Source of the DNA: a virus
DNA: 54,795 bases
Direction: 5' to 3' (one strand)
Virus record (IMG/VR): IMGVR_UViG_3300045988_094320
Shown: in pieces, positions 2,580 through 40,591 of the stretch
How the letters are laid out: the number at the start of each line of letters is the position of its first letter
Position numbering within the stretch: position 1 is the first letter of the stretch
Notes under the pieces: model-generated
What the model was told of the DNA's origin: nothing
The model's database searches: none
What the model saw: only the letters and a program-made list of their open reading frames with translations
Made by a program: the position numbers and the translations under genes

Positions 2580-5500
2580 ATGGCAGAAGTAGATAGCTTA
2601 GAGATTGCTATAAAAGCGCAGGCAACACAAGCAAATAACGCATTAGATAAACTGGTAAACAATCTTACTAGGCTGTCAAACTCTCTTATGAGCGTAAATA
2701 CAAGCGGTCTCAACGGTTTGTCAAATGGAGTAACAAAGCTGTCTAATGCTATGGCTGGAATCAGCACGGTAAAAACGGCAGATTTTACGAGAGTTGCTAA
2801 TGGAATCACAAAAATTTCAAGCATTGACACGGCTAATTTGAACCGCTCTGCATCTGCAATCGGTATGCTCGGAAAAGCCTTAACACCGCTGACCGCTTCT
2901 GGTGCATCTGACAGAGTTACAGCACTTGCAAAAGCGATTTCACAGCTTGGTTATAAGTCAAGCACAAAAGCCATTGACAATATACCTAAACTGGCTAAAG
3001 CTATGAAACAGCTTATTACAACGCTTTCCGGCGCACCAAAGGTAAGTCAAAATCTTATAGATATGACTAACGCGCTTGCACAATTTGCGCGTACTGGGGC
3101 ATCCGGCGGCAATGCGGCAAAGGCACTTGCGAATAACTTTACCTCTTTTGGTTCTACGGCAGTAAAAGCTAAAAAACATACGTTTTCACTAGCATCCGCT
3201 TTCGGAAAACTATACGCTTCATACTGGCTTCTGATTCGCGGAGCTGGGAAGTTAAAAGAAGCGATCAACATATCATCTGCTTTGACAGAAGTACAAAACG
3301 TAGTTGTCAATACGTTCGGGCAATATACAGATTCGCTTGAAAAATTCTCGAAAAATGCAATACAGCAGTATGGTATTTCTGAGTTGACTGCAAAGCAGAC
3401 AGCAAGTAGGTATCAGGCAATGGGTATCGCAATGGGAGTACCTATTCAGAAAATGTCTGATATGTCTATTGCGTTGACGAAGTTATCCGCTGATATGGCA
3501 TCTTTCTATAATGTAGAGCAAAGCCAAGTGCAGCAGAATTTGCAGTCTATTTTCACTGGCGAGACAGAACCAATGAGAAAATATGGTATCGACCTCACAA
3601 ATGCCACATTGAAAGAATGGGCTTTAAAAGAGGGTCTTGATGCGGATATTTCGTCTATGACGCAGATGGAAAAGACAATGCTTCGATACCAATACGTAAT
3701 GCAGAATACAGCGAATGTGCAGGGGGACTTCGCTAGGACTGCAGATACATGGGCGAACCAGCTTCGTATCTTGCGAGAGCAGTTTAAGGCGCTTGGGGCT
3801 ATTTGGGGCAATGCTTTTATCAATATGCTTAAACCACTTGTCAAGGCACTGAATACGGCTATGCAAGCTGTAATTAAGTTTTCTGAAACTGTTGTAAATG
3901 CGCTTGGGGTTATTTTTGGTTGGAAGATTGAAATGCAGTCCGGCGCAATAGCAGAAGATTACGACACGGCGGCTGGAAGTGCTGATGATTTAGCGGCAAA
4001 CACAGGGAAAGCGGCAGATAATGCTAAAAAGCTAAAACAGCAGTTGCAGGGCTTTGATAAGTTAAACAATCTTACAACAAACCAAGGCAGCGACAGCGGA
4101 ACTGGAAAGGGAAGCGGTGCTGGTGGCGCTACTGGCGGTGCATCTGGCGGCAATCTGAAATTCAATGTTAAGGAAACGGAAAGTTTTTACAAGAGCAAGA
4201 TAAAAACGCTTGAAGGACTTGGAAAGTATATCGGGAATAGCCTGTCAAAAGCTATGGAATCCATTAAATGGGATAAAGTATATAAGAAAGCAAAAGCGTT
4301 CGGTACAGGTCTTGCACAGTTTTTAAATGGTCTTATCAGTCCAAGACTTTTCGGAAATGTCGGAAAAACCATTGCTGGCGCACTTAACACAGCTATCTAT
4401 GCCGCGCTTTCATTCGGAACGACATTTAACTGGAAAAACTTAGGCAATTCGATTGCAAAAGGAATCAATAAGTTTTTTGACACGTTTGATTTCGCAGCAT
4501 TCGGAAAGACCGTCAATACATGGGTACATGGTATATGGACTACTCTTACTACGGCAATCAAGAAGATAAAGTGGGAAAATGTATTAAAAGGAATTACTGA
4601 TTTCCTAGGAGAACTTGATCTCGAAACAGTTTCAATTATTCTTGGTGTCATTACAATCAAAGGAATAAAAAAACTTCTGTTTTCTGAAAAATTCAAAAAA
4701 TGGTTGGGAGAAAAAGCATCAAAGGTAATTGTCAAAGCAATAGCTTCAAAATTGGGAGTAGAAGCGACTTGGTCTGTAGTAGGAAAAACTATTTTAACCA
4801 AGGTCGGCGGAATATTTGCAGGAATCGGCGCAAAAATTGGAGCCACAATAAACATGGCAATAGCTTCTGCTGGCGGTATGCAGGCAATAATTGCAGCAGG
4901 CACCTTAATAGCAGAAACATTATTCGCAGGAATAGCCGCGGCAATAGCAGGATGGAATTTAGGTCAGTGGCTAAATGAAAAACTAACAGGCGAAAAAATA
5001 GATATGTCATTCTCGGAGCAAATGACAGAAATCAAAAATTCCTTTTCTGATGGTTCGTGGAAAGAAGCGTTGAAACTTTGGGGCGACGATATCTACAACG
5101 GTTTTCTTGCTGTTTCAGAATCAGAAGACCAACTTATGAAGCCTGTTAAAGATGGGCTGAATGAAGTGAGAGGAATGTTCTCTGACGGTCAATTCGGAGA
5201 AGCTATGTCTCTTTGGGGGCAAGATATATACGATGGTTTCTTGTCAGTATCGCAGTCGCAAGATAATTTTATGAAGCCTTTTAAAGACAAGTACAATGAG
5301 GTAAAAGGTCTTTTTGCTGACGGACAGTTCGGCGCGGCTATGGGAGCATGGGGCGACGATATCAAACTGAAACTGAACAATGTAAAAGATAGTTTTCTGC
5401 TGACATGGGATAACATAAAGTTAGGCGTTAAAAGCGCATGGCAAGCTACGGTTGACGGTCTGAAAGAAATATGGAACAAATTCGCAACGTGGCTGAACGA

Positions 5501-8994: not shown

Positions 8995-10347
8995 ATGGCA
9001 AGAAAACAATCAAGTACGATATGGTACCAAGGAAATCCACATAAAGAGATATATTTTCAAGGTCATTACCACGACAAGATGTATAAGGGAAGTCAGCTTG
9101 TGTGGGAAAAACTGGATAATGAATATGCCCCAAATAAATTGTACAGAATATATGATTATGCTACTTGGGATAACAAAACATATTGTATCGTTGCGATGTA
9201 TGATTTCAATCCGTCTACCAAAGAGCAAACTTTTGAAGATGTATATATAGCCAAATTTAACAGCGAAAAAATGTGCCTTGACTTGACTTTAAAAGGATTT
9301 TTGACAAGCGATAATTATGATAACTATTATTTGCACGCTTGCAAAGACGGAATTGTTCTAATCGAATGGGATAGCAAATTTTCAAGCACCAATACTGAAA
9401 ACGAACCTGTAATGAGAATTGCAGATTATCCGCTAAGTAAAAATTCTGTATTTAGAAAAATTGAACAGGGAACATTTACAGAGGATACTACAATCTTTGT
9501 TCCAGCTCATACAAGAAAGGATAAATCGACTGGAACACACTATTATGCCCCACAATATGTATTATTTTCTTCTGATTATTATATAAAGCAAACAATAACA
9601 TCTGAAAATCAAGCGGTTATAACCAAATATAACTATGCAAACGAAGTAATTAAGCAATCAACACCTACTGACTATGCAGTAGAAGGCGCAAGGCAATCAA
9701 GAGTAAGAAATGTATTTGAATTGTCAGGAAATAAATATGTAAGTTACGTGACAACATATAATAGCATCAATACATCGATGGAAAATATACGAGGTCTTCT
9801 TGTAGACAAAGAAATATCATCAAAGGTGCAACAAGTGATTGAAGCTACGAGCGATGCTTATTATCAAATAATCAACACAAGCAATATGGGTCTTACTAAA
9901 ATGTGCCAAAAAAGAGTAATGGCGAGATACAAAGATGGCGTAATTTTCTCAGCATTTATATATCCAAAAACCGGAACCGGATCAATGTATGTTACGATCA
10001 GAAATTATATAGGAAAAGTAGACGGCATATCTATGGTAAATACAGATATATCACCTCATTGTTTCGTTACTTCTAAAAACTCTATTATAATGGTTCATTA
10101 CAACGGCAAAATTGCAGATGTATATGAAATAAAAGAAAATGAAATAAAGAAATTTAGCACAGGAATATCTCTGGGAGTTTCATACACGAGCAGAGAAATA
10201 TGGATAGCAGAAGATGAAAATAATTATTATGTAATATCTGATGGATATTACGCGGATTCAAACTATTATGGCTTGATATATGCATTCGACAAAGAAACTT
10301 TAGAATTTAACGGAACTCGTCAAAATATGAAATATAGGTATATCTAA
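8995..10347 (+). CDS. Tail tip/baseplate structural protein, function unknown
   Basis: 450 aa, beta-rich and Tyr/Asn-rich, lying between the hub and fibre genes. Confidence 0.45.
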   Translation: MARKQSSTIWYQGNPHKEIYFQGHYHDKMYKGSQLVWEKLDNEYAPNKLYRIYDYATWDNKTYCIVAMYDFNPSTKEQTFEDVYIAKFNSEKMCLDLTLKGFLTSDNYDNYYLHACKDGIVLIEWDSKFSSTNTENEPVMRIADYPLSKNSVFRKIEQGTFTEDTTIFVPAHTRKDKSTGTHYYAPQYVLFSSDYYIKQTITSENQAVITKYNYANEVIKQSTPTDYAVEGARQSRVRNVFELSGNKYVSYVTTYNSINTSMENIRGLLVDKEISSKVQQVIEATSDAYYQIINTSNMGLTKMCQKRVMARYKDGVIFSAFIYPKTGTGSMYVTIRNYIGKVDGISMVNTDISPHCFVTSKNSIIMVHYNGKIADVYEIKENEIKKFSTGISLGVSYTSREIWIAEDENNYYVISDGYYADSNYYGLIYAFDKETLEFNGTRQNMKYRYI

Positions 10348-10358
10348 AGGAGATCATC

Positions 10359-12338
10359 ATGGCAAATTACACACCGACTTTTACAAAACCATACCCTAGC
10401 GGATGGGTAGATAAGCCGTCCAAGACGACGCCAGTCACAGCGGCAATAATGAACAGTTATGATACGGCTATTGCGGCACTGGAAGCATATCTTAGAGATA
10501 ATGCGATTGATACGGTTACCGTTAGCGTAGAGCAGTTTCCGTCAGACGGAAGGCAATGGCTTGGAACGATTACAGTTGGAAGCAACCAGTATAGAATCTA
10601 TATGCCATCGTTAAAATACGAAAATTCAGTTTCTGATGGCATTAAGATAGGAACTATCACTTTGGGGGAGCAGTCTTTTGATGTTTACGCCCCCACATCT
10701 TCCGCAGGCGGCAGTACCGTATCAGTAGTTCCCAAAACTCTTACTGGCACAAATATTGCAGAAATTACAGTAGACGGCACTACCTATCAGCTTTATGCAC
10801 CTACTGGCGGAAGCGGTAGCGGAAGCACCGTGACAGCAGAAGCTACGCTGACAGAGGGTACACAGATAGGCAAGATTACGATTGACGGAGTTGAAACAAT
10901 CCTTTATGCACCAAATGGCGGCGGCGGAAGCGTTACAGTAGATTCTGCTCTTTCTACAGAATCAGAGAACCCAGTGCAAAACAAAGTAGTAACCGCCGAA
11001 TTGAATAAAAAAATAGAAACACTTGACGATGAATCACAAGCACCCGATGTAGTCAATTTTGATTTAGATTCTGAACTTTCTCTAACTTCTGTCAAAGGTG
11101 TACAGAACAAAGCCATTGCAGAAGAATTTCAGAATTATGCAAACGGCACTAAAGTTGCAGCAAAAGCTAAAGAAGCAGAAACAGCAAAAACAGCTGCAAG
11201 TGCTACAACCGCACAATCAGCCACAACCGCTGAAAGTGCAACAAAAGCCACACGGGATGCGCAAGGAAATGTAATCGACACAACATATGCAAAAAAGACA
11301 GAAATTCCTCAAGGAGCCGTTGTTGATGATGCTTTATCTGCAAGTAGTACTAATCCGGTACAAAATAAAGTTGTAAAAGCTGAGTTTGACAAGATAAATA
11401 GTAATTTAACTGATTTGAAAATGCTTGGTTGGTCAGTACCAAAAGAATGCCCTGTGCAGAATGAAGCGAATAGTAATCAGTTTGTGCAGAAAGTCGGAAG
11501 AGTTGATTTAGGAAGTCAGGCTTGGACTTCAGTTAGTACAAATACTTCATTATATAGTACATCCATCAAAGATATAAAAACATTATCAAACAATATATTT
11601 TTACTTGGGTATTCTGTTACATCATATGATATTGAAACTTCAAAAATGACAAATAAAAATATAAAAATGTCCGGTTTAGATAAACAAGATTTTTATATTA
11701 AAAATGATTCATATACAGATTTGGATTCATTTAAAAAAGCAATGCAAGGTCAATATCTTTATTATGAACTTGCTACACCTATCACACGCACGATTGACGG
11801 AAATGAGGCTATTAGTCAGTTAAATTCCGATTTATCCAATATAAAAGACGGCACAACGCCTTCTGCGAAAGCTTTAGCTGACGAAGATGGGAATAATATA
11901 AAGAGTACCTATGCAAAGAAAACGGAAACATTCGAGATTGTAACTGAAGATGTTAATGTAGTTCTTAACTCCGATTTATTTGATTCTACCTATAGTGATA
12001 TTACCTGTATACGCATTGGAAAACTTTGTGTTCTAAGTTTTACCATACGTGTTCAAAATAATATATCTAGTACCATAGATAAGATTGTTTTAATGTCAAT
12101 AATAGGAACAAAATATCAACCGAAAAAATTAGGTGCTAGTACTAGTAGAAGACAAATCTTTCAGGGATTTGCTGTTGGTAATTATGACGAGAATGGAAAA
12201 CAATCAGAATCTCTCAATAATACGGTAAGAATTATTACAAGTTCGGATAGTAATTATACGCAAATTATTACAAGAGACAAAAATAGAATAAACTGGAGTG
12301 GTTATGTGCAAGGTCAAATAATGTGGGTAACTGATTAA
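10359..12338 (+). CDS. Tail fibre / receptor-binding protein with internal repeats
   Basis: 659 aa with four modules of about 45 aa ending in Y(A/M)P. It has duplicated ALS..S.NPVQNKVV.AE motifs, an Ala/Thr-rich linker and a divergent C-terminal domain. Confidence 0.7.
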   Translation: MANYTPTFTKPYPSGWVDKPSKTTPVTAAIMNSYDTAIAALEAYLRDNAIDTVTVSVEQFPSDGRQWLGTITVGSNQYRIYMPSLKYENSVSDGIKIGTITLGEQSFDVYAPTSSAGGSTVSVVPKTLTGTNIAEITVDGTTYQLYAPTGGSGSGSTVTAEATLTEGTQIGKITIDGVETILYAPNGGGGSVTVDSALSTESENPVQNKVVTAELNKKIETLDDESQAPDVVNFDLDSELSLTSVKGVQNKAIAEEFQNYANGTKVAAKAKEAETAKTAASATTAQSATTAESATKATRDAQGNVIDTTYAKKTEIPQGAVVDDALSASSTNPVQNKVVKAEFDKINSNLTDLKMLGWSVPKECPVQNEANSNQFVQKVGRVDLGSQAWTSVSTNTSLYSTSIKDIKTLSNNIFLLGYSVTSYDIETSKMTNKNIKMSGLDKQDFYIKNDSYTDLDSFKKAMQGQYLYYELATPITRTIDGNEAISQLNSDLSNIKDGTTPSAKALADEDGNNIKSTYAKKTETFEIVTEDVNVVLNSDLFDSTYSDITCIRIGKLCVLSFTIRVQNNISSTIDKIVLMSIIGTKYQPKKLGASTSRRQIFQGFAVGNYDENGKQSESLNNTVRIITSSDSNYTQIITRDKNRINWSGYVQGQIMWVTD

Positions 12339-34057: not shown

Positions 34058-34318
34058 AATTGGTACATAATTGGTACATAAAAATAAAACAAAGACAAAG
34101 AAATGCGATAAAACAGGCATTTCTGGTAAGGAGAAAGTTGAAATGAAATTAGGCATCGTAGTTAATTGACGTTTTTTATATAAATTTACGTGGTTTAATA
34201 TATTGCTACAAATACCTATTTTATTGAGTTTTTTGAGTTTTTGTGAAATTGTATATTTTTATATATTTTCACGTATTTTTATAAAAATTGGTACATAATT
34301 GGTACATAACTGGTACAC
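34058..34318. other. attP-like region: five direct 11-bp arm-type repeats flanking an AT-rich core
   Basis: aattggtacat x2 (34058-34079), then aattggtacat x2 plus aactggtacac (34286-34318). About 205 bp of AT-rich DNA lies between, with the inverted GTGAAA/TTTCAC pair. Confidence 0.55.
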
Positions 34319-34337
34319 GGAAAAAGCCTTATGCAAA
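34319..34337. repeat. 19-nt perfect inverted copy of 32887..32905
   Basis: GGAAAAAGCCTTATGCAAA is the reverse complement of TTTGCATAAGGCTTTTTCC. Confidence 0.95.
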
Positions 34338-34353
34338 ATGAGAATAAATTGAT

Positions 34354-34381
34354 AAGAATGTGAGAACCACATTCTTTTTTT
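34354..34381 (+). terminator. Strong intrinsic terminator downstream of attP
   Basis: AAGAATGTG-agaac-CACATTCTT followed by TTTTT. Confidence 0.8.
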
Positions 34382-37843: not shown

Positions 37844-38092
37844 TTAGATTTATGCAAGCTGGAAAACTGGATTTTGAAAATCTTGATAAAAACACTAAAA
37901 AGATCTGCTTTCAAAAAATTTTTCACGAAAAAAATTTCAAATCGGGGAGAATTTGAACCCCCCCCGGTACCATTTTACAGGCTCAAAAACCAAAACGGCG
38001 TTTTTGACGAATTTTACAAAATTTTCGTGAAATTTGGGTTGGAAAATTGAAAATGATTTATAGTGCTTTCGGTTCGTAGATGATACTGGGCC

Positions 38093-38263
38093 TGTCCGGG
38101 CGCGTGCTGATCTTTTCGCTGATCTTTTACGGATCGCCGGCATATTAAACAAATGCCATATATACCGCTGTACCTGTTTGATTGTTCTGATCTTTCGCCA
38201 TGCTCCGGCATATGGAATCTGGGCGCACCTGTCCGGGTGTCCTTCTTGCTGATCTTGTCCGGG
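38093..38263. repeat. Cluster of short repeats: CTGATCTT x4, TGTCCGGG x3, CCGGCATAT x2
   Basis: CTGATCTT at 38107, 38119, 38187 and 38249. TGTCCGGG at 38093, 38230 and 38256. CCGGCATAT at 38137 and 38205. There are five GATC sites within about 150 bp. Confidence 0.85.
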
Positions 38264-38301
38264 CGTGGTTGCAGAATTTCAGAGTGCACAAATTAAAGGC
38301 T

Positions 38302-38329
38302 ATAAGATGCGAATATTTGCACCTGTGAA
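38302..38329 (-). promoter_or_regulatory. Minus-strand promoter P2 (diverged duplicate of P1)
   Basis: Read on the minus strand: TTCACA, 16-nt spacer, TCTTAT. Confidence 0.4.
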
Positions 38330-38401
38330 CGCGCATAACGCCATCAGAGCCATGCAAGACATGCAAGACATATAAATACACTTATAGATATAATTAAGGC
38401 T

Positions 38402-38430
38402 ATAATATGCCTATATTGTCAAATTGTCAA
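38402..38430 (-). promoter_or_regulatory. Minus-strand promoter P1, near consensus
   Basis: Read on the minus strand: TTGACA (38430-38425), 17-nt spacer, TATTAT (38407-38402). Confidence 0.6.
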
Positions 38431-38459
38431 GGTATGAAAAGAAGCCGAGAAAATCCCGG

Positions 38460-38654
38460 CTATTGTTCGATGATTTCAAAGCATTTTTGTATTTCTTCCA
38501 GACTGTGACAGCATTCCCCGCCTGGATAACGATATATAGCCATATAATCGCCACAGCCTAAAGGTTGTATATCTTTCAAATATGCTCTATATCCTCCGTT
38601 CCCTTTTATAATCTTTGGGTATCCGTCTTTCCTCATTTTTTCAATTATTGTCAT
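38460..38654 (-). CDS. Small Cys-containing protein (64 aa)
   Basis: ATG 38654 with RBS GGAGGAA at 7 nt. It is the last gene of the leftward operon and is followed by a hairpin at 38441-38461. Confidence 0.5.
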   Translation of the reverse strand: MTIIEKMRKDGYPKIIKGNGGYRAYLKDIQPLGCGDYMAIYRYPGGECCHSLEEIQKCFEIIEQ

Positions 38655-38744
38655 GCTCTTTTTCCTCCATATTCTAATTTTATCCCAGTTACCCGGGTAA
38701 AAGCAAGCCGGGGAATCGAACCCCGGAAGCACCGACCTTGCTAA

Positions 38745-39077
38745 TTATTTGCTTGCTAAAATCTCCCTTGCTAATAAATCCCAGTAAAGGCTATCGCCGC
38801 GCTTGTCAAGCCACTTTTCGGCTTCTTCTGTGCTTTCGTCTAACCATTCAGCCATAAGCTGGATAATATCATAATAACTATAATCAACGCCAACGCCCAA
38901 ACCTCTCAGCCATTCTATGCAGGCGTTACGCTCTCCAAGTCTTGCAATCGCCCAACCGTATTCACTTACAAACTTTTCCTTAATGTCCTTAATTGTGATA
39001 AGCTCTTCACTCTGTGCAACCTCTGCCAAATAATTTCTAACCGCTACTTTAACTTCCTTGCTGTTTGTTCTTCTCAT
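38745..39077 (-). CDS. Acidic helical protein (110 aa), unknown function
   Basis: Track ORF; Trp/Glu-rich C-terminal half. Confidence 0.55.
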   Translation of the reverse strand: MRRTNSKEVKVAVRNYLAEVAQSEELITIKDIKEKFVSEYGWAIARLGERNACIEWLRGLGVGVDYSYYDIIQLMAEWLDESTEEAEKWLDKRGDSLYWDLLAREILASK

Positions 39078-39105
39078 TTCTTTTTACCTGTGCTATAATA
39101 TAGCT

Positions 39106-39168
39106 ACCTTTCTTTTTTTGATTGGTGGCGGCTTGTGCTTGGTAGGCGTGCCGCCTTTTTTCTTTTTT
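39106..39168 (+). ncRNA. Candidate cis-antisense sRNA of about 60 nt
   Basis: A perfect extended -10, TGCTATAAT (39091-39099), lies about 27 nt upstream of hairpin GGCGGC (39127-32)/GCCGCC (39150-55), which is followed by TTTTTTCTTTTTT. It is antisense to the intercistronic leader of the minus-strand operon. Confidence 0.4.
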
Positions 39169-39233
39169 GGTCTGCCATCATCAGCACCGGGAGACCGTCC
39201 CGCGGTGGACGCTCCAAGGTCGGAGCGTTTCGG

Positions 39234-39386
39234 CTAAATCATGTTAATTGCTTCGGCGTTTAGTTCTATGCATTTCTGGTTGCATCTTTCGATTGATCCA
39301 GTAAAAACGATCTTGCCTGATCCGTTTATTTCTTCAACAACGCAATAACCGAAATAATCGTTATAAGATACATAATATTTTGGCAT
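39234..39386 (-). CDS. Small protein (50 aa), not in the track
   Basis: MPKYYVSYNDYFGYCVVEEINGSGKIVFTGSIERCNQKCIELNAEAINMI, with RBS GGAGCTGGGAAG. Confidence 0.4.
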   Translation of the reverse strand: MPKYYVSYNDYFGYCVVEEINGSGKIVFTGSIERCNQKCIELNAEAINMI

Positions 39387-39401
39387 CTTCCCAGCTCCTT
39401 T

Positions 39402-39515
39402 CTATTTCTCAATCAGCTTAATATCCTGATCGGATTCAATCGCTGTTACTTCTGATCTTGTAAATTCCTCTGATCCTACATACATACCGTTTACATAAAT
39501 TCTATAAGTTTTCAT
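39402..39515 (-). CDS. Small protein (37 aa)
   Basis: MKTYRIYVNGMYVGSEEFTRSEVTAIESDQDIKLIEK, with RBS AAAGGAAG. It is the internal start of track ORF 39402..39776. Confidence 0.35.
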   Translation of the reverse strand: MKTYRIYVNGMYVGSEEFTRSEVTAIESDQDIKLIEK

Positions 39516-39577
39516 TTGCTTTTCTTCCTTTCGTTTGGCGCTTGGTTTTTCTTTTGATAGCTTTATTATAACAGATA

Positions 39578-39717
39578 TAAGGCACAAAACAAGTCGGAAT
39601 ATTATACAAATATAAGGCACAAAACAATTATTCTTTTGTGCAATGTGTATAAGGCACAAATATATTGAGACACTTATATATAGAAGAAAAATAAAACCTT
39701 GACATATAAGGCACAAA
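39578..39717. promoter_or_regulatory. Four direct TAAGGCACAAA boxes in the divergent promoter region
   Basis: Boxes at 39578, 39613, 39650 and 39707. The last sits between TTGACA (39699) and TATTAT (39722) of the RHH gene promoter. On the other strand the boxes overlap two TATAAT-containing leftward promoters. Confidence 0.7.
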
Positions 39718-39759
39718 GCAGTATTATATCTATATAATATTAAAAGGAGGTTGTGAGAT

Positions 39760-39954
39760 ATGAACGAAGAACACAAGACAAGCGAAGCACAAAGAAAAGC
39801 TATATATAATTATGATAGCAAATTTGAGCGGATCAATTGCAGATTCCAAGCAGGCACAAAAGACAGAATCAAGGCATTGAAATATTCGGCGAATGACTTT
39901 ATAAAATTGGCGGTTGCCGAAAAGCTGGAGCGCGAAGAAAAAATATTGAAATAA
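39760..39954 (+). CDS. Ribbon-helix-helix (CopG/Arc-like) DNA-binding protein
   Basis: 64 aa with RBS AAAGGAGG. ERINCRFQAGTKDRIKALKYSANDFIKLAVAEKLERE fits the beta-strand plus two helices RHH pattern. Confidence 0.5.
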   Translation: MNEEHKTSEAQRKAIYNYDSKFERINCRFQAGTKDRIKALKYSANDFIKLAVAEKLEREEKILK

Positions 39955-39997
39955 GGCACAAAATACTATTGACATGTAAGGCACAAAATGATATCAT
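39952..39997 (+). promoter_or_regulatory. Two more TAAGGCACAAA boxes and a second boxed promoter
   Basis: Boxes at 39952 and 39977. TTGACA (39969-74), 17-nt spacer containing a box, TATCAT (39992-97). Confidence 0.6.
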
Positions 39998-40045
39998 AAG
40001 ATCAAACAAAAACGAAAGGGCAGCTAAGGCTGTAGGGTGGTTGAG

Positions 40046-40285
40046 ATGAAAACAGAGGATATTAGAAAAATTCTTGCACATGGTACAAACATGACAGAAC
40101 GCGACATAGAAAGGCATATAAAAGATGGCGTTTCTGTATACGATAACACGGATGCAGGATACAAAGACTATGAGCGAGAGTGTATAGCAGGTTTAATTGA
40201 TCCGGAAGAGATCCCGGAAATGTGGAAAAGTTTGGAAACAGTAGAAAACGGTGTGAAAAGCTACAAGATTGATTTTGTTTTATAG
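40046..40285 (+). CDS. Hypothetical acidic protein
   Basis: 79 aa from ATG 40046 (RBS GGGTGG). Confidence 0.45.
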   Translation: MKTEDIRKILAHGTNMTERDIERHIKDGVSVYDNTDAGYKDYERECIAGLIDPEEIPEMWKSLETVENGVKSYKIDFVL

Positions 40286-40297
40286 GCTCAAACATTT

Positions 40298-40327
40298 AGC
40301 CCCGGCTGAAAAGCTGGGGTTTTCTTT
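40298..40327 (+). terminator. Intrinsic terminator
   Basis: AGCCCCGGC-tgaaaa-GCTGGGGTT followed by TTCTTT. Confidence 0.65.
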
Positions 40328-40364
40328 GGTTGCCGTTTGGTTGCCGTTTGGTTGCCAAGTGGTT
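40328..40364. repeat. 11-bp direct repeats GGTTGCCGTTT, about 3.3 copies
   Basis: Copies at 40328-38, 40339-49 and 40350-60 (GGTTGCCAAGT), then GGTT. Confidence 0.9.
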
Positions 40365-40444
40365 AACAATACAGCTAAAAACAAGGCTGCCAAAACAGCT
40401 ACAAGCCGCATAAAAACTGGATTTTGACAAAAAGCAGATAGGGT

Positions 40445-40515
40445 ATACATACCCTATACATACCCTATGCATACTGTATCCATACTGTATACATAGTGTA
40501 TCCATACCGTATACG
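40445..40515. repeat. 11-bp phased iterons AT(A/C/G)CATA(C/G)(C/T)(C/G)T, 6.5 copies
   Basis: atacataccct atacataccct atgcatactgt atccatactgt atacatagtgt atccataccgt atacg. Confidence 0.9.
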
Positions 40516-40516
40516 C

Positions 40517-40591
40517 AAAGAAAAAAGAGAAAAAGAAAGCAGAAAGAAAAGAAGCAAAAGAAAGAGTAAAGAATAAAGATAAATAAAGAAA
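40517..40591. repeat. Polypurine tract (plus strand), followed by about 140 bp of AT-rich DNA with a central (CG)3 block
   Basis: 75 nt with only 6 pyrimidines. The region 40600-40736 is almost pure A/T except tatatatcgcgcgcggatatat. Confidence 0.85.

Follow-up and report, generated by a model that had tools for sequence, protein, structure and literature searches.

Aca regulators are conserved proteins encoded beside genes that vary, and they can be used for guilt-by-association searches. In the case of RNA, tRNA shapes near coding regions are known from organellar tRNA punctuation, from the t-elements of plant mitochondria and from mascRNA, and they are thought to recruit RNase P/Z and to define mRNA ends. 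Aca14 from Pasteurella multocida is an anti-CRISPR-associated regulator of the RHH type, and it binds an AT-rich inverted repeat located over the -10 element (bioRxiv 10.64898/2026.07.27.740549). Clustered phage hammerhead ribozymes, whose cleavage was shown in vitro, have been proposed to process transcripts, such that long phage transcripts are cut to gene-length mRNAs; in prophages these hammerheads flank single genes or short blocks of non-constant identity, one of the flanked genes being the anti-restriction gene ardA, and those of type II have been described as forming a pseudoknot in which the loop of stem I pairs with the 3' tail (Perreault et al. 2011, PMC3088659). The literature that we searched held no description of the tRNA-like element (TLE) presented below, no tRNA-like separators in phage operons and no ribozymes linked to anti-defence.

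The window analysed here is the whole stretch of viral DNA of 54,795 nucleotides. The phage has genes for a tyrosine integrase and an excisionase, integrated copies of it are present in bacterial contigs, and the module that we studied lies ~6 kb from the prophage end. We consider it probable that this locus is an Aca-type, autoregulated accessory region, probably dedicated to anti-defence, of a temperate Lachnospiraceae/Clostridiales phage, and that its leftward message carries RNA punctuation. From left to right, its features are the following:

38433-38461, minus strand: intrinsic terminator of the leftward unit
38460-38654, minus strand: cargo ORF of 64 aa, Cys-containing, in 4/80 related loci
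38679-38701, minus strand: conserved 5'-UTR hairpin (CCCGG..CUGGG), followed by an A/U-rich stretch and the GGAGG Shine-Dalgarno of the next gene
38694-38745, minus strand: TLE, the "top-half" of a tRNA, supported by covariation
38745-39077, minus strand: cargo ORF of 110 aa (phrog_11100), in 8/80 loci
39166-39235, minus strand: type II hammerhead (Rfam RF02276, 63.2 bits), with cleavage predicted after C39208 (39208/39207)
39234-39386, minus strand: cargo ORF of 50 aa, whose TAG stop provides the first two nucleotides of the hammerhead
39402-39515, minus strand: cargo ORF of 37 aa, first leftward gene, in 2/80 loci
39565-39573, minus strand: extended -10 of leftward promoter PL1, TGTTATAAT (TATAAT 39570-39565 plus upstream TG), conserved in the footprint
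39578-39588, plus strand: box 1, TAAGGCACAAA, in the spacer of PL1, kept in ~75/80 loci and in the footprint
39601-39606, minus strand: TATAAT -10 of leftward promoter PL2, read from the sequence, in the footprint
39613-39623, plus strand: box 2, TAAGGCACAAA, in the spacer of PL2, in the footprint
39650-39660, plus strand: box 3, TAAGGCACAAA, putative auxiliary site, with the partial inverted copy at 39634-39641
39699-39727, plus strand: the regulator's own promoter (-35 TTGACA 39699-39704; -10 TATTAT 39722-39727)
39707-39717, plus strand: box 4, TAAGGCACAAA, in the 17-nt spacer of that promoter, in the footprint
39760-39954, plus strand: 64-aa RHH protein, the putative regulator (N-terminal helix, beta-strand ERINCRF, two helices)
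39952-39962, plus strand: box 5, TAAGGCACAAA, overlapping the TAA stop of the regulator gene, upstream of the rightward cargo promoter
39969-39997, plus strand: rightward cargo promoter (-35 TTGACA 39969-39974; -10 TATCAT 39992-39997, with TG)
39977-39987, plus strand: box 6, TAAGGCACAAA, in the 17-nt spacer of that promoter
40046-40285, plus strand: cargo gene of 79 aa, in the slot taken by AcrIC5-family genes in relatives
40298-40331, plus strand: intrinsic terminator of the rightward unit

The product of the putative regulator gene appears to be an RHH protein of the Arc/AmrZ type with an N-terminal helix. Direct searches with the protein itself gave no match in Pfam, NCBIfam or the PDB (phmmer), and the assignment therefore rests on a deeper alignment. 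Eight distant members of the family match families of the RHH clan (Arc, TacA1, RHH_1, NikA-like, DUF6290, HicB and CB_ParB_C), and the family profile shows weak matches to AmrZ (E 0.015) and Arc (E 0.22). The AF2 monomer built on the deep alignment reached a pLDDT of 92.7, with a helix, an extended segment at 22-32 and helices at 33-39 and 44-63; a shallow alignment gave a poor model (pLDDT 59), and Foldseek found no PDB match for either of the two. The RHH order is present, the ERINCRF strand, in which polar or basic residues alternate, being followed by an AGT turn (the G-x-[ST] turn before helix A) and then by the helices, and residues R24, N26, R28, G32 and T33 are invariant among close family members. 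A comparison of profiles by hhalign suggests, with a probability of 80.7% and an E value of 1.3e-5 over 47 columns, that the protein is distantly related to the recently reported Aca14, to which BLASTP detects no pairwise similarity (E 6.9). The RHH-like character proposed in the preliminary description is thus supported by the distant members, the profile, the AF2 model and the hhalign result.

The same description had reported six direct copies of the 11-mer TAAGGCACAAA, and exact counting bears this out: the 54,795 bases contain six exact copies, all on the plus strand, and no seventh, compared with 0.05 expected from shuffles, of which 0/100 reached six or more. The partial inverted copy that had been placed near 39634 corresponds to TTTTGTGC at 39634-39641, and the positions given for boxes 4 and 6, within the 17-nt spacers of two TTGACA promoters, also hold; both of these rightward promoters matched 11/12 consensus positions in a promoter scan. 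What had to be corrected is the statement that boxes overlap the leftward TATAAT elements. The measured gap between these elements and boxes 1 and 2 is 6-7 nt, with no overlap, and boxes 1 and 2 therefore lie within the spacers of the leftward promoters. The -35 elements of PL1 and PL2 are weak (TTGTTT) despite good -10 elements, and owing to its weak -35 PL1 was not listed by the promoter scan and was taken directly from the sequence. The boxes are single, asymmetric, spaced 25-59 bp apart and share one orientation. The sites of RHH proteins are as a rule repeats, either inverted or in tandem, which counts against the proposed binding. The neighbourhood of the array also contains 11-bp-phased repeats (40325-40523), which are not conserved in relatives.

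The regulator gene and the box array recur together in 80 related loci of gut (Lachnospiraceae/Clostridiales) phages, and the box layout is found in ~75/80 of them. A phylogenetic footprint of 73 distinct upstream regions showed conservation of the boxes, of the partial inverted copy and of the promoter hexamers, and of nothing else. IMG/VR alone contains 211 relatives, to which a sister subfamily adds 138; two distant subfamilies (P0183 and P0147) are represented by one viral locus each. Among protein-coding genes, only the RHH gene accompanies the boxes in every case. Members of the sister subfamily carry the beta-strand NYRLNIVF instead of FER[VI]NCRF, and their loci present another box, TAACGCACAT, in an identical layout. 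The exchange is complete at the level of exact copies: one locus set contains 303 copies of TAAGGCACAAA and 0 of TAACGCACAT, and the other 0 and 303. Because box and protein covary between the subfamilies, the boxes are likely operators of the 64-aa protein, a view that draws on sequence comparison. Sites in both its own promoter and a cargo promoter, as expected for an Aca protein, are recognised here by position only, and these positions are conserved and covary with the protein.

The cargo genes that surround this conserved pair differ from locus to locus. ORFs of 37, 50, 110 and 64 aa are indeed present on the minus strand, as had been described, but the picture of a leftward operon of four tiny proteins was incomplete, since a hammerhead and a tRNA-like element occupy gaps between them and the four do not form a conserved set. 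Each of the four leftward proteins occurs in 2-8/80 related loci, and all cargo genes of the window in 1-8/80, compared with 47/80 and 62/80 for the framing genes. The cargo proteins fall into 131 leftward and 75 rightward clusters, ~90% of whose representatives have no Pfam family. It had been noted that the leftward proteins lack recognisable domains, and we likewise found no Pfam or NCBIfam match for them, the one hit being that of the 110-aa protein to phrog_11100, a family of unknown function. One cluster, however, is AcrIC5 (PF22147; 40.2 bits versus a cut-off of 27), and at least 12 related loci have AcrIC5-family genes in the slot that follows the regulator on its downstream side. The acr/aca-like reading that had been offered as one option fits these observations, i.e. 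a conserved regulator, hypervariable cargo and AcrIC5-family genes in the rightward slot of relatives. The five cargo proteins of this window matched no known anti-defence family in Pfam, NCBIfam or PHROG, and we infer for them a function that would probably be anti-defence. Other relatives carry Rha/Ant anti-repressors, HicA/HicB, an HTH protein, a small recombinase and membrane-type DUFs, and because anti-repressors, HicB and a recombinase are among them, the term "anti-defence" may be too narrow.

The hammerhead is a known kind of phage feature. Its 63.2 bits exceed the gathering score of RF02276 (37) and cover the full model (1-66); the cores (CUGAUGA, GAAA and the cleavage triplet GUC) are intact, three stems are present with stem II open, and the MFE structure is a three-way junction. 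According to the Rfam alignment, a pseudoknot is possible between the stem I loop (GGUCU) and the complementary 3' tail (AGACC). In a DNA search against deposited phages the hammerhead was the sole match. Homologous hammerheads were detected by nhmmer in at least 41/80 loci, on the minus strand every time, and in 44/46 cases they start between -2 and +3 nt from a stop codon. The ribozyme would be expected to cleave itself in vivo. Rfam detected no other ribozyme classes in 18 arrays without a hammerhead.

The TLE consists of an acceptor-like stem (38742-38737/38707-38702), a 10-nt linker containing GG, and a T-arm (38726-38708) with the loop UUCGAUU, which gives 6 + 6 bp, 12 in all, and a canonical 7-nt T-loop. 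Across TLE copies, the acceptor-like stem is joined to the T-arm by a GG linker or a mini-hairpin of 10-18 nt. The element has no encoded CCA, and neither ARAGORN nor the Rfam tRNA model calls it a tRNA. It has neither an anticodon arm nor a full cloverleaf; within Rfam there was only a faint match to mascRNA (17.6 bits versus a cut-off of 42.5). A search with a TLE model returned 34 matches at E < 1e-3, all of them on the minus strand and upstream of the regulator. In the covariation analysis 98.8% of cells were paired, double changes occurred in 6/12 pairs, and the observed score was reached by 0/500 shuffles. It should be noted that the model was seeded with short-linker copies only, that MAFFT misregistered the 5' acceptor strand of the long-linker variants, and that the structural regular expression for TLEs selects on pairing and is hence circular, so that it served for candidate finding only and was excluded from the statistics. 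Minority stem families score weakly with the model (the GCTAATA family, E 0.02-0.6), and in two loci (L024 and L002) single-sequence folds recover the T-arm only; we count these families as weak evidence. The placement of the element is nearly fixed: the start of 26/30 copies falls between -5 and +6 nt of a stop codon, and in 23/25 the next ATG follows 31-39 nt beyond the TLE. TLE and hammerhead each sit exactly between cistrons, recurring in relatives as the flanking genes change, and one locus (L005) holds a hammerhead/TLE hybrid in the same slot. Its shape and intercistronic position suggest that the TLE may be cleaved by RNase P or RNase Z. A further candidate for a structured RNA, at 37.9-38.4 kb, showed no fold signal (z = +0.74) and no conservation.

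These observations can be combined into a working model. As a dimer or a larger oligomer, the 64-aa RHH protein would bind the boxes of 11-14 bp; four of these lie in promoter spacers (those of its own promoter, of the rightward cargo promoter and of the two leftward ones), and the other two would be auxiliary sites. Upon entry of the phage the promoters would fire, the regulator would accumulate, and it would then repress all of them, as Aca proteins do; both DNA binding and repression by this protein are predictions. The leftward message would be made up of small, horizontally swapped genes with an RNA element filling each whole intercistronic gap. The hammerhead would cut after C39208, leaving two products that end in hairpins, the downstream one with a 5'-OH, and the TLE, by mimicking the acceptor/T-arm half of a tRNA, would be a substrate for one or both of the host enzymes RNase P and RNase Z. 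In this way each cassette would have a standard 5' UTR for its expression, regardless of the genes beside it. We advance more tentatively, as possible but doubtful, the general proposal that hammerheads and anticodon-less tRNA mimics cut by RNase P/Z are interchangeable mRNA separators that create plug-and-play anti-defence cassettes with standard 5' UTRs.

Other views of the locus have to be weighed against this one. The location of the module ~6 kb from the prophage end, the recognisable cargo of the relatives (Rha/Ant, HicA/HicB, an HTH protein, a recombinase and membrane-type DUFs) and the fact that the window's own cargo has no anti-defence match would all suit a general lysogenic-conversion ("moron") or superinfection-control array, in which the RHH protein would keep the array constantly at a low level in lysogens and the targets of the cargo would be the host or competing phages. 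We regard this as somewhat unlikely, given the AcrIC5-family genes in the regulated rightward slot, the suggested remote relationship of the regulator to Aca14, and the very small, fast-turnover genes behind strong autorepressed promoters, which typify acr-aca loci; it should be added that the two views overlap and do not exclude each other. As to the regulation itself, the combination of good -10 and weak -35 elements (TTGTTT) in the leftward promoters, together with a single box orientation that makes leftward and rightward promoters face the boxes differently, could mean that a different factor reads the boxes, or that the RHH protein activates the leftward promoters, for example by substituting for the missing -35. 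However, no protein-coding gene other than the RHH gene accompanies the boxes throughout, the box sequence switches together with the beta-strand of the protein, the promoter spacer is a classic repressor position, and the sites from which Aca14 represses lie over the -10 element (bioRxiv 10.64898/2026.07.27.740549); we regard both options as quite improbable.

The preliminary description had also left room for a toxin-antitoxin-like module or a plasmid-type partition or copy-control locus. A module made up of small toxins and an RHH antitoxin would agree with the frequency of RHH domains among antitoxins, with the matches of distant members to TacA1 and HicB, and with the HicA/HicB genes that adjoin the regulator in three loci (L163-L165); yet the window contains no toxin or antitoxin family, and the hypervariable neighbours never include a fixed partner, whereas an antitoxin would be conserved together with its toxin, so that we hold this option to be very improbable. 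An RHH centromere-binding protein acting on repeated sites is scarcely credible: the direct repeats and the RHH protein do resemble omega/ParG systems, one distant member weakly matches CB_ParB_C, and the phased repeats lie nearby, but these repeats are not kept in relatives, the boxes are tied to promoter elements, and the flanks encode no ParA or Rep, the phage having instead an integrase and an excisionase and being found integrated. With respect to the TLE, it is unlikely that it is something other than a processing site, be it an attP core, a decaying tRNA gene, a recombination junction for the swapping of cassettes, or a decoy for defences that target tRNA. It is true that the site used by the integrase is tRNA-side (L168), but the TLE is intact ~6 kb inside three prophages (L166-L168), whose junction with bacterial DNA lies just downstream of the integrase region, and attP is thereby rejected. 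Decay of a tRNA gene is unlikely in view of the compensatory changes, the retention of both acceptor strands and the fixed placement between stop codon and Shine-Dalgarno. The hybrid in L005 indicates recombination between hammerhead and TLE, conserved junction sequences would favour the exchange of cassettes, and a decoy would be in keeping with a locus that may be anti-defence; these two roles could coexist with processing. We therefore favour the Aca-type reading of an autoregulated accessory, probably anti-defence, region.

If the regulator-box pair works as we propose, it will be a marker for hundreds of accessory/anti-defence loci in Lachnospiraceae phages, and more than 200 unknown families of small proteins will become guilt-by-association candidates in a host group for which few anti-defence genes are known. 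The pairing of TAAGGCACAAA and TAACGCACAT with two beta-strands is a natural specificity swap and, hence, a test case for DNA recognition by RHH proteins. The strict intercistronic placement of the hammerheads bears on a question that has stood since 2011, namely the purpose of bacterial and phage hammerheads. The TLE, if cleaved, will represent a new class of bacterial mRNA-processing signal, and both separators offer themselves as candidate parts for genetic insulation. If the separator proposal is true, the arrays will be the equivalent, in a bacterial virus, of mitochondrial tRNA punctuation and synthetic ribozyme insulators, and the released mini-tRNAs might act as decoys against immune enzymes directed at the acceptor ends of tRNAs.

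In summary, the locus shares features with several known systems and differs from each of them. Like Aca14, the regulator is small (~65 aa), has an N-terminal helix followed by the RHH domain, and has its predicted sites inside promoters; Aca14 controls its own and neighbouring operons with acr or other anti-defence genes, and the present regulator is likened to it by the positions of the boxes. However, the six boxes here are asymmetric, share one orientation and lie in spacers and auxiliary positions rather than forming an inverted repeat over the -10 element, the hosts are those of Lachnospiraceae phages, the regulator gene comes first, not last, and stands between divergent arrays, and the cargo message carries RNA separators. 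With the canonical acr-aca operons (Aca1-Aca13) it has in common strong promoters, predicted negative feedback by a small conserved regulator and variable partners, and it differs from these HTH systems in having an RHH fold and a bidirectional arrangement with four promoters and arrays of up to ~10 genes. Reading of DNA by a beta-ribbon, operators inside promoters and autoregulation, all predicted here, recall Arc, Mnt and AmrZ, the last also in the N-terminal extension, whereas the operator organisation differs and the profile similarity is weak (AmrZ E 0.015, Arc E 0.22). The likeness of the TLE to organellar punctuation and mascRNA comes from shape and position, and the element differs from these in belonging to a bacterial virus, in having no anticodon arm and in not being a functional tRNA. 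Finally, the hammerheads are like those described previously (PMC3088659) in being of type II, in the pseudoknot between stem I loop and 3' tail and in their changing flanking genes, but in the present case a defined regulator/operator system goes with the arrays, the stop codon of the gene upstream contains the start of the ribozyme, and a non-catalytic TLE can take the same slot.

The 11-mer TAAGGCACAAA is present in six exact copies (boxes 1 to 6 at 39578, 39613, 39650, 39707, 39952 and 39977), all on the + strand and grouped around the gene of the 64-aa RHH regulator (39760-39954, +), and no further exact copy is found anywhere in the 54,795-base window. In dinucleotide-preserving shuffles the 11-mer is expected 0.05 times on average and 0 of 100 shuffles reached six copies, so that the repeat noticed in the preliminary description is far from chance. 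The conserved unit exceeds the 11-mer and is about TATAAGGCACAAAA. The elements with which the boxes are associated are the following:

38461-38443, - strand: intrinsic terminator after the leftward ORFs
39570-39565, - strand: leftward TATAAT, with a TG upstream making it an extended -10
39606-39601, - strand: leftward TATAAT, read from the sequence
39634-39641: partial inverted copy of the box
39699-39727, + strand: sigma-70-type promoter of the regulator gene, 11 of 12 consensus positions, box 4 in the 17-nt spacer
39969-39997, + strand: sigma-70-type promoter of the downstream gene, 11 of 12 consensus positions, box 6 in the 17-nt spacer
40298-40321, + strand: terminator at the end of the rightward 79-aa gene

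The inverted copy and the placement of two boxes within the spacers of the rightward promoters are thus as originally reported. The two leftward TATAAT elements also exist, but they do not overlap boxes as had been stated: each is 6-7 nt away from a box, which places boxes 1 and 2 inside the spacers of two leftward promoters. The -35 elements of these promoters, as read from the sequence, are weak (TTGTTT), which explains why they are absent from the promoter-scan list. It should be noted that a box-like sequence is also located inside the regulator gene (39850-39860 in the window, +78 to +87 in many related loci), at the codons of the invariant G-T-K; it has two mismatches in the window and at most one in many relatives, and may be either a coding coincidence or an internal operator.

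The 64-aa protein itself has no match in Pfam, NCBIfam or PDB sequences, and it matches phrog_31631, whose function is unknown. It belongs to a family of very conserved 62-66-aa proteins from gut metagenomes, comprising at least 162 clusters (469 representatives at the 50% clustering level in an exhaustive profile search), in which R24, N26, C27, R28, G32 and T33 are invariant. An alignment of 58 diverse family members (A6) is the basis of the family-hit, PDB-profile and AlphaFold2 evidence. Individual members match Arc, TacA1, RHH_1, NikA-like, DUF6290, HicB and CB_ParB_C, and the family profile finds its best genuine PDB matches in AmrZ, over the N-terminal arm, the strand and the helices (E 0.015), and in Arc (E 0.22). 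The AlphaFold2 model (pLDDT 92.7) consists of a helix (9-21), an extended segment (22-32) and two further helices (33-39 and 44-63); a Foldseek search with this predicted structure gave no match. These lines of evidence agree, although each is modest alone, and the protein is taken to be an Arc/AmrZ-type RHH protein with an N-terminal helix.

A scan of IMG/VR yielded 211 relatives, the best 80 of which were analysed. Nearly all 80 loci have three to four boxes ahead of the regulator gene, a further box at the stop codon of the gene and another ~25 nt beyond that; the boxes share one orientation and are nearly absent from the 8-kb flanks. A footprint of 73 distinct upstream regions retains only the boxes, the -35 and -10 of the regulator promoter, the two leftward -10s and the inverted partial copy, and leaves the 37 nt from box 3 to the regulator's -35 free to vary. 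A sister subfamily, found with P0165, carries the beta-strand NYRLNIVF instead of FER[VI]NCRF, and in its 80 loci the six-site layout is kept while the box differs, being TAACGCACAT(A). Exact copies of the original box number 303 in loci of the first family and 0 in those of the sister subfamily, and the reverse holds for the sister box. Thus, the operator sequence switches when the DNA-reading strand switches, and this covariation is strong computational evidence that the regulator reads the boxes, as had initially been proposed.

The genes that accompany the regulator are far less constant. In a map of DNA conservation, four islands stand out from variable surroundings, namely the regulator with its boxes, the hammerhead ribozyme, 38650-38750, and ~41.8-41.9 kb. 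The last of these islands (~41780-41900) is a non-coding stretch that separates a 218-aa gene from the following ORF; 28 related loci conserve it, and it has no match in Rfam. The framing genes are widespread: of the 80 loci, 47 contain a 121-aa peptidase-like gene and 62 the 218-aa gene, and the window's own cargo genes are each present in only 1-8. Simple ATG-start calling on 81 sequences gave 385 leftward ORFs (131 clusters) and 158 rightward ORFs (75 clusters), some of them spurious on account of this method. About 90% of 84 representatives of recurrent clusters lack a Pfam family, and family searches assigned no function to the window's five cargo proteins. Recognisable cargo in relatives includes Rha/Ant anti-repressors, HicB, an HTH protein, a small recombinase, a few DUFs and a 58-aa AcrIC5-family protein (40.2 bits, cut-off 27), genes for which occupy the rightward slot, under a box-bearing promoter, in at least 12 loci. 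A conserved autoregulator combined with fast-changing small genes is, by analogy, the logic of acr-aca loci; the hypervariable cargo and the AcrIC5-family genes favour the acr/aca-like accessory reading put forward in the preliminary description.

All four leftward ORFs described at the outset (37, 50, 110 and 64 aa) are present on the minus strand, but it had been overlooked that intercistronic gaps of this operon contain a hammerhead and a tRNA-like element. The type II hammerhead (39235-39166, -) is full length (Rfam 63.2 bits, cut-off 37), with both cores (CUGAUGA and GAAA) intact and GUC as the cleavage triplet, and its minimum free energy structure is a three-way junction; cleavage is predicted between 39208 and 39207. 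The loop of stem I, GGUCU, is complementary to the 3' tail AGACC, allowing a pseudoknot of the kind described for type II hammerheads (PMC3088659). The ribozyme starts within the TAG stop codon of the 50-aa ORF. Homologous hammerheads, of two sequence subtypes and sometimes in two copies, are present in at least 41 of the 80 loci, all on the minus strand; 44 of 46 begin at -2 to +3 nt relative to a stop codon, and the next start codon is mostly 22-39 nt past the CUGAUGA. On the opposite strand, a promoter-like site (39071-39099, 10/12, with TG) is followed by a terminator-like hairpin with a T-run (39144-39156; region 39071-39170), a pair that could yield a ~60-nt antisense RNA directed at the 5' UTR that leads from the hammerhead to the 110-aa gene; conservation of 39100-39150 extends to ~15 loci.

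The tRNA-like element (TLE; 38745-38694, -) fills the gap between the 110-aa and 64-aa ORFs. It consists, in order, of a 6-bp acceptor-like stem (AGCAAG/CUUGCU), a 10-nt linker containing GG, and a 6-bp T-stem with the loop UUCGAUU; on its 3' side are a small hairpin and the Shine-Dalgarno of the next gene. Neither ARAGORN nor the Rfam tRNA model calls a tRNA here, and Rfam gives only a faint mascRNA match. A covariance model built on 11 short-linker copies, which had been identified by sequence similarity, gave 34 matches at E < 1e-3, all on the minus strand and upstream of the regulator. In an alignment of 32 hits, 98.8% of cells are paired, versus 41-61% when the partners are slid, both-side changes occur in 6 of 12 pairs, and 0 of 500 shuffles reached the observed covariation score. 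Relative to a stop codon, the start of the element is at -5 to +6 nt in 26 of 30 cases, and the next ATG follows 31-39 nt past it in 23 of 25. Some copies have a 4-bp hairpin in place of the linker, with the GG kept in its loop, which we interpret as a D-loop mimic; copies with unrelated stems (GCTAATA/TATTAGC, GCAACC/GGUUGC) exist with weaker evidence. RNase P and RNase Z recognise a 12-bp stack of acceptor stem and T-arm that carries a T-loop, and we therefore propose, by analogy, that the TLE may be a substrate of RNase P, RNase Z or both. In one relative (L005, ~3387-3490, -) this slot contains a hybrid: a hammerhead 5' part that extends as far as stem I continues, from CCCGGCU on, as the 3' acceptor strand of a TLE and its downstream UTR. 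Both elements thus occupy equivalent positions, and the hybrid suggests recombination between separators. In prophage contig L167 there is another minus-strand array, on the right-hand side of the regulator (10378-11936), with its own TLE (10938-10989), showing that separators are not confined to the divergent leftward unit. A role of the TLE as attP was rejected, as it is intact inside integrated prophages. A literature search found no description of such a tRNA-like intercistronic element.

The window is a temperate tailed-phage genome, with these landmarks:

13.7-14.5 kb: CI/Cro-like switch
32.5-34.1 kb: Tn916-type excisionase and tyrosine integrase
46.1 kb: terminase

The RHH module is the sole minus-strand block in its part of the genome, flanked by genes of unknown function (34.4-37.8 kb) and by the packaging region. 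In bacterial contigs the prophage junction lies immediately downstream of the region with the integrase: homologues of the 34.4-37.8 kb genes come after ligA and a homoserine O-succinyltransferase gene in L167, and a 23S rRNA gene and a tRNA gene in L168, which places the module ~6 kb inside one prophage end. The junctions put attP just downstream of the integrase gene (window 34058-34360; L167 2900-3130; L168 3195-3510), and the L168 prophage abuts the tRNA gene located after the 23S rRNA gene. Genome matches are Lachnospiraceae/Clostridiales MAGs, and one protein cluster is annotated from Clostridium sp. AF22-10. Upstream of the terminase, a small tRNA cluster (43228-43313, 43535-44119) includes a suppressor-type tRNA with anticodon UUA that would read UAA; with 34 of 81 ORFs, TAA is the most frequent stop codon of the window, so that no recoding is obvious. 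Many relatives (L011-L042, L166-L168) have int-alpA RNA motifs (RF02996) beside phage tRNA clusters, on the + strand 3-4 kb downstream of the regulator, and two prophage contigs have a DUF3800-I RNA (L163 3137-3260, L165 6203-6326); neither motif is present in the window. In prophages L163-L165 the regulator gene is directly preceded, on the same strand, by genes for the HicA toxin and the HicB antitoxin (9527-9987).

Two stretches adjoin the module. At 40325-40760, 11-bp-phased repeats (TTTGGTTGCCG three times at 40325-40364 and eight ATACCCTATAC-like units at 40427-40523) precede A-rich and AT-rich DNA that leads up to the 218-aa gene; this region looks like an origin or pac site, and the repeats are not conserved in relatives. 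Directly beyond the leftward terminator, an 11/12 promoter (38430 to 38402, -) faces ~500 nt without a convincing ORF (37850-38430, -), a stretch that contains internal repeats (CCTGTCCGGGCG three times), shows no unusual folding (z = +0.74) and is conserved in the two closest relatives and not beyond.

We propose that the four promoters would fire upon infection or induction, and that the RHH protein would then build up, bind the boxes and repress all four. The leftward transcript would be cut at the hammerhead and, by proposal, at the TLE, each cut leaving an upstream product with a hairpin end and a downstream product with a hairpin start, the latter bearing a 5'-OH after ribozyme cleavage. 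Each cassette would thus possess a standard 5' end and ribosome-binding region regardless of the genes beside it, which would suit an array with constant member exchange, and the conserved separators could double as recombination junctions. The leftward promoters might conceivably be activated rather than repressed.

The preliminary description had also considered that the module could be toxin-antitoxin-like, which is not supported, since the window contains no toxin family and the regulator has no fixed partner. Nor is the suggested role in plasmid partition or copy control supported, as ParA and Rep are absent and the phage integrates. A general moron or superinfection-control array fits part of the cargo; such an array would not be exclusive of an anti-defence role, the function that we infer for the cargo. 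The initial interpretation is borne out in part. We regard the module as an autoregulated accessory or anti-defence locus of the Aca type whose cargo is punctuated by hammerheads.

Clustered prophage hammerheads were reported in 2011 to flank genes of non-constant identity, one of them the anti-restriction gene ardA, and were proposed to process long transcripts into gene-length mRNAs (Perreault et al. 2011, PMC3088659). As regards the hammerhead, the biology was thus already known and is seen here in a defined regulatory setting. What is new is an RHH regulator family with a defined, covarying operator, its very wide distribution in gut Clostridia phages, and a candidate tRNA-like intercistronic element. 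A preprint of July 2026 (10.64898/2026.07.27.740549) introduces Aca14 as the first Aca of the RHH type. Its binding site is an inverted repeat lying across the -10 element, and it represses both the operon that encodes it and an adjacent anti-defence operon. Pairwise BLASTP of Aca14 (sequence from Supplementary Table S2 of the preprint) with the 64-aa protein found nothing, and hhalign aligned it with the family profile (81%, E 1.3e-5) over 47 columns comprising the N-terminal helix, the strand and both helices, suggesting that the 64-aa protein may be a remote relative. By analogy, it would bind DNA and repress transcription as an Aca14-type regulator does. The two systems differ, however, in that the operator here consists of six asymmetric boxes in one orientation instead of an inverted repeat, that the regulator gene is located between divergent arrays, and that the hosts are different.
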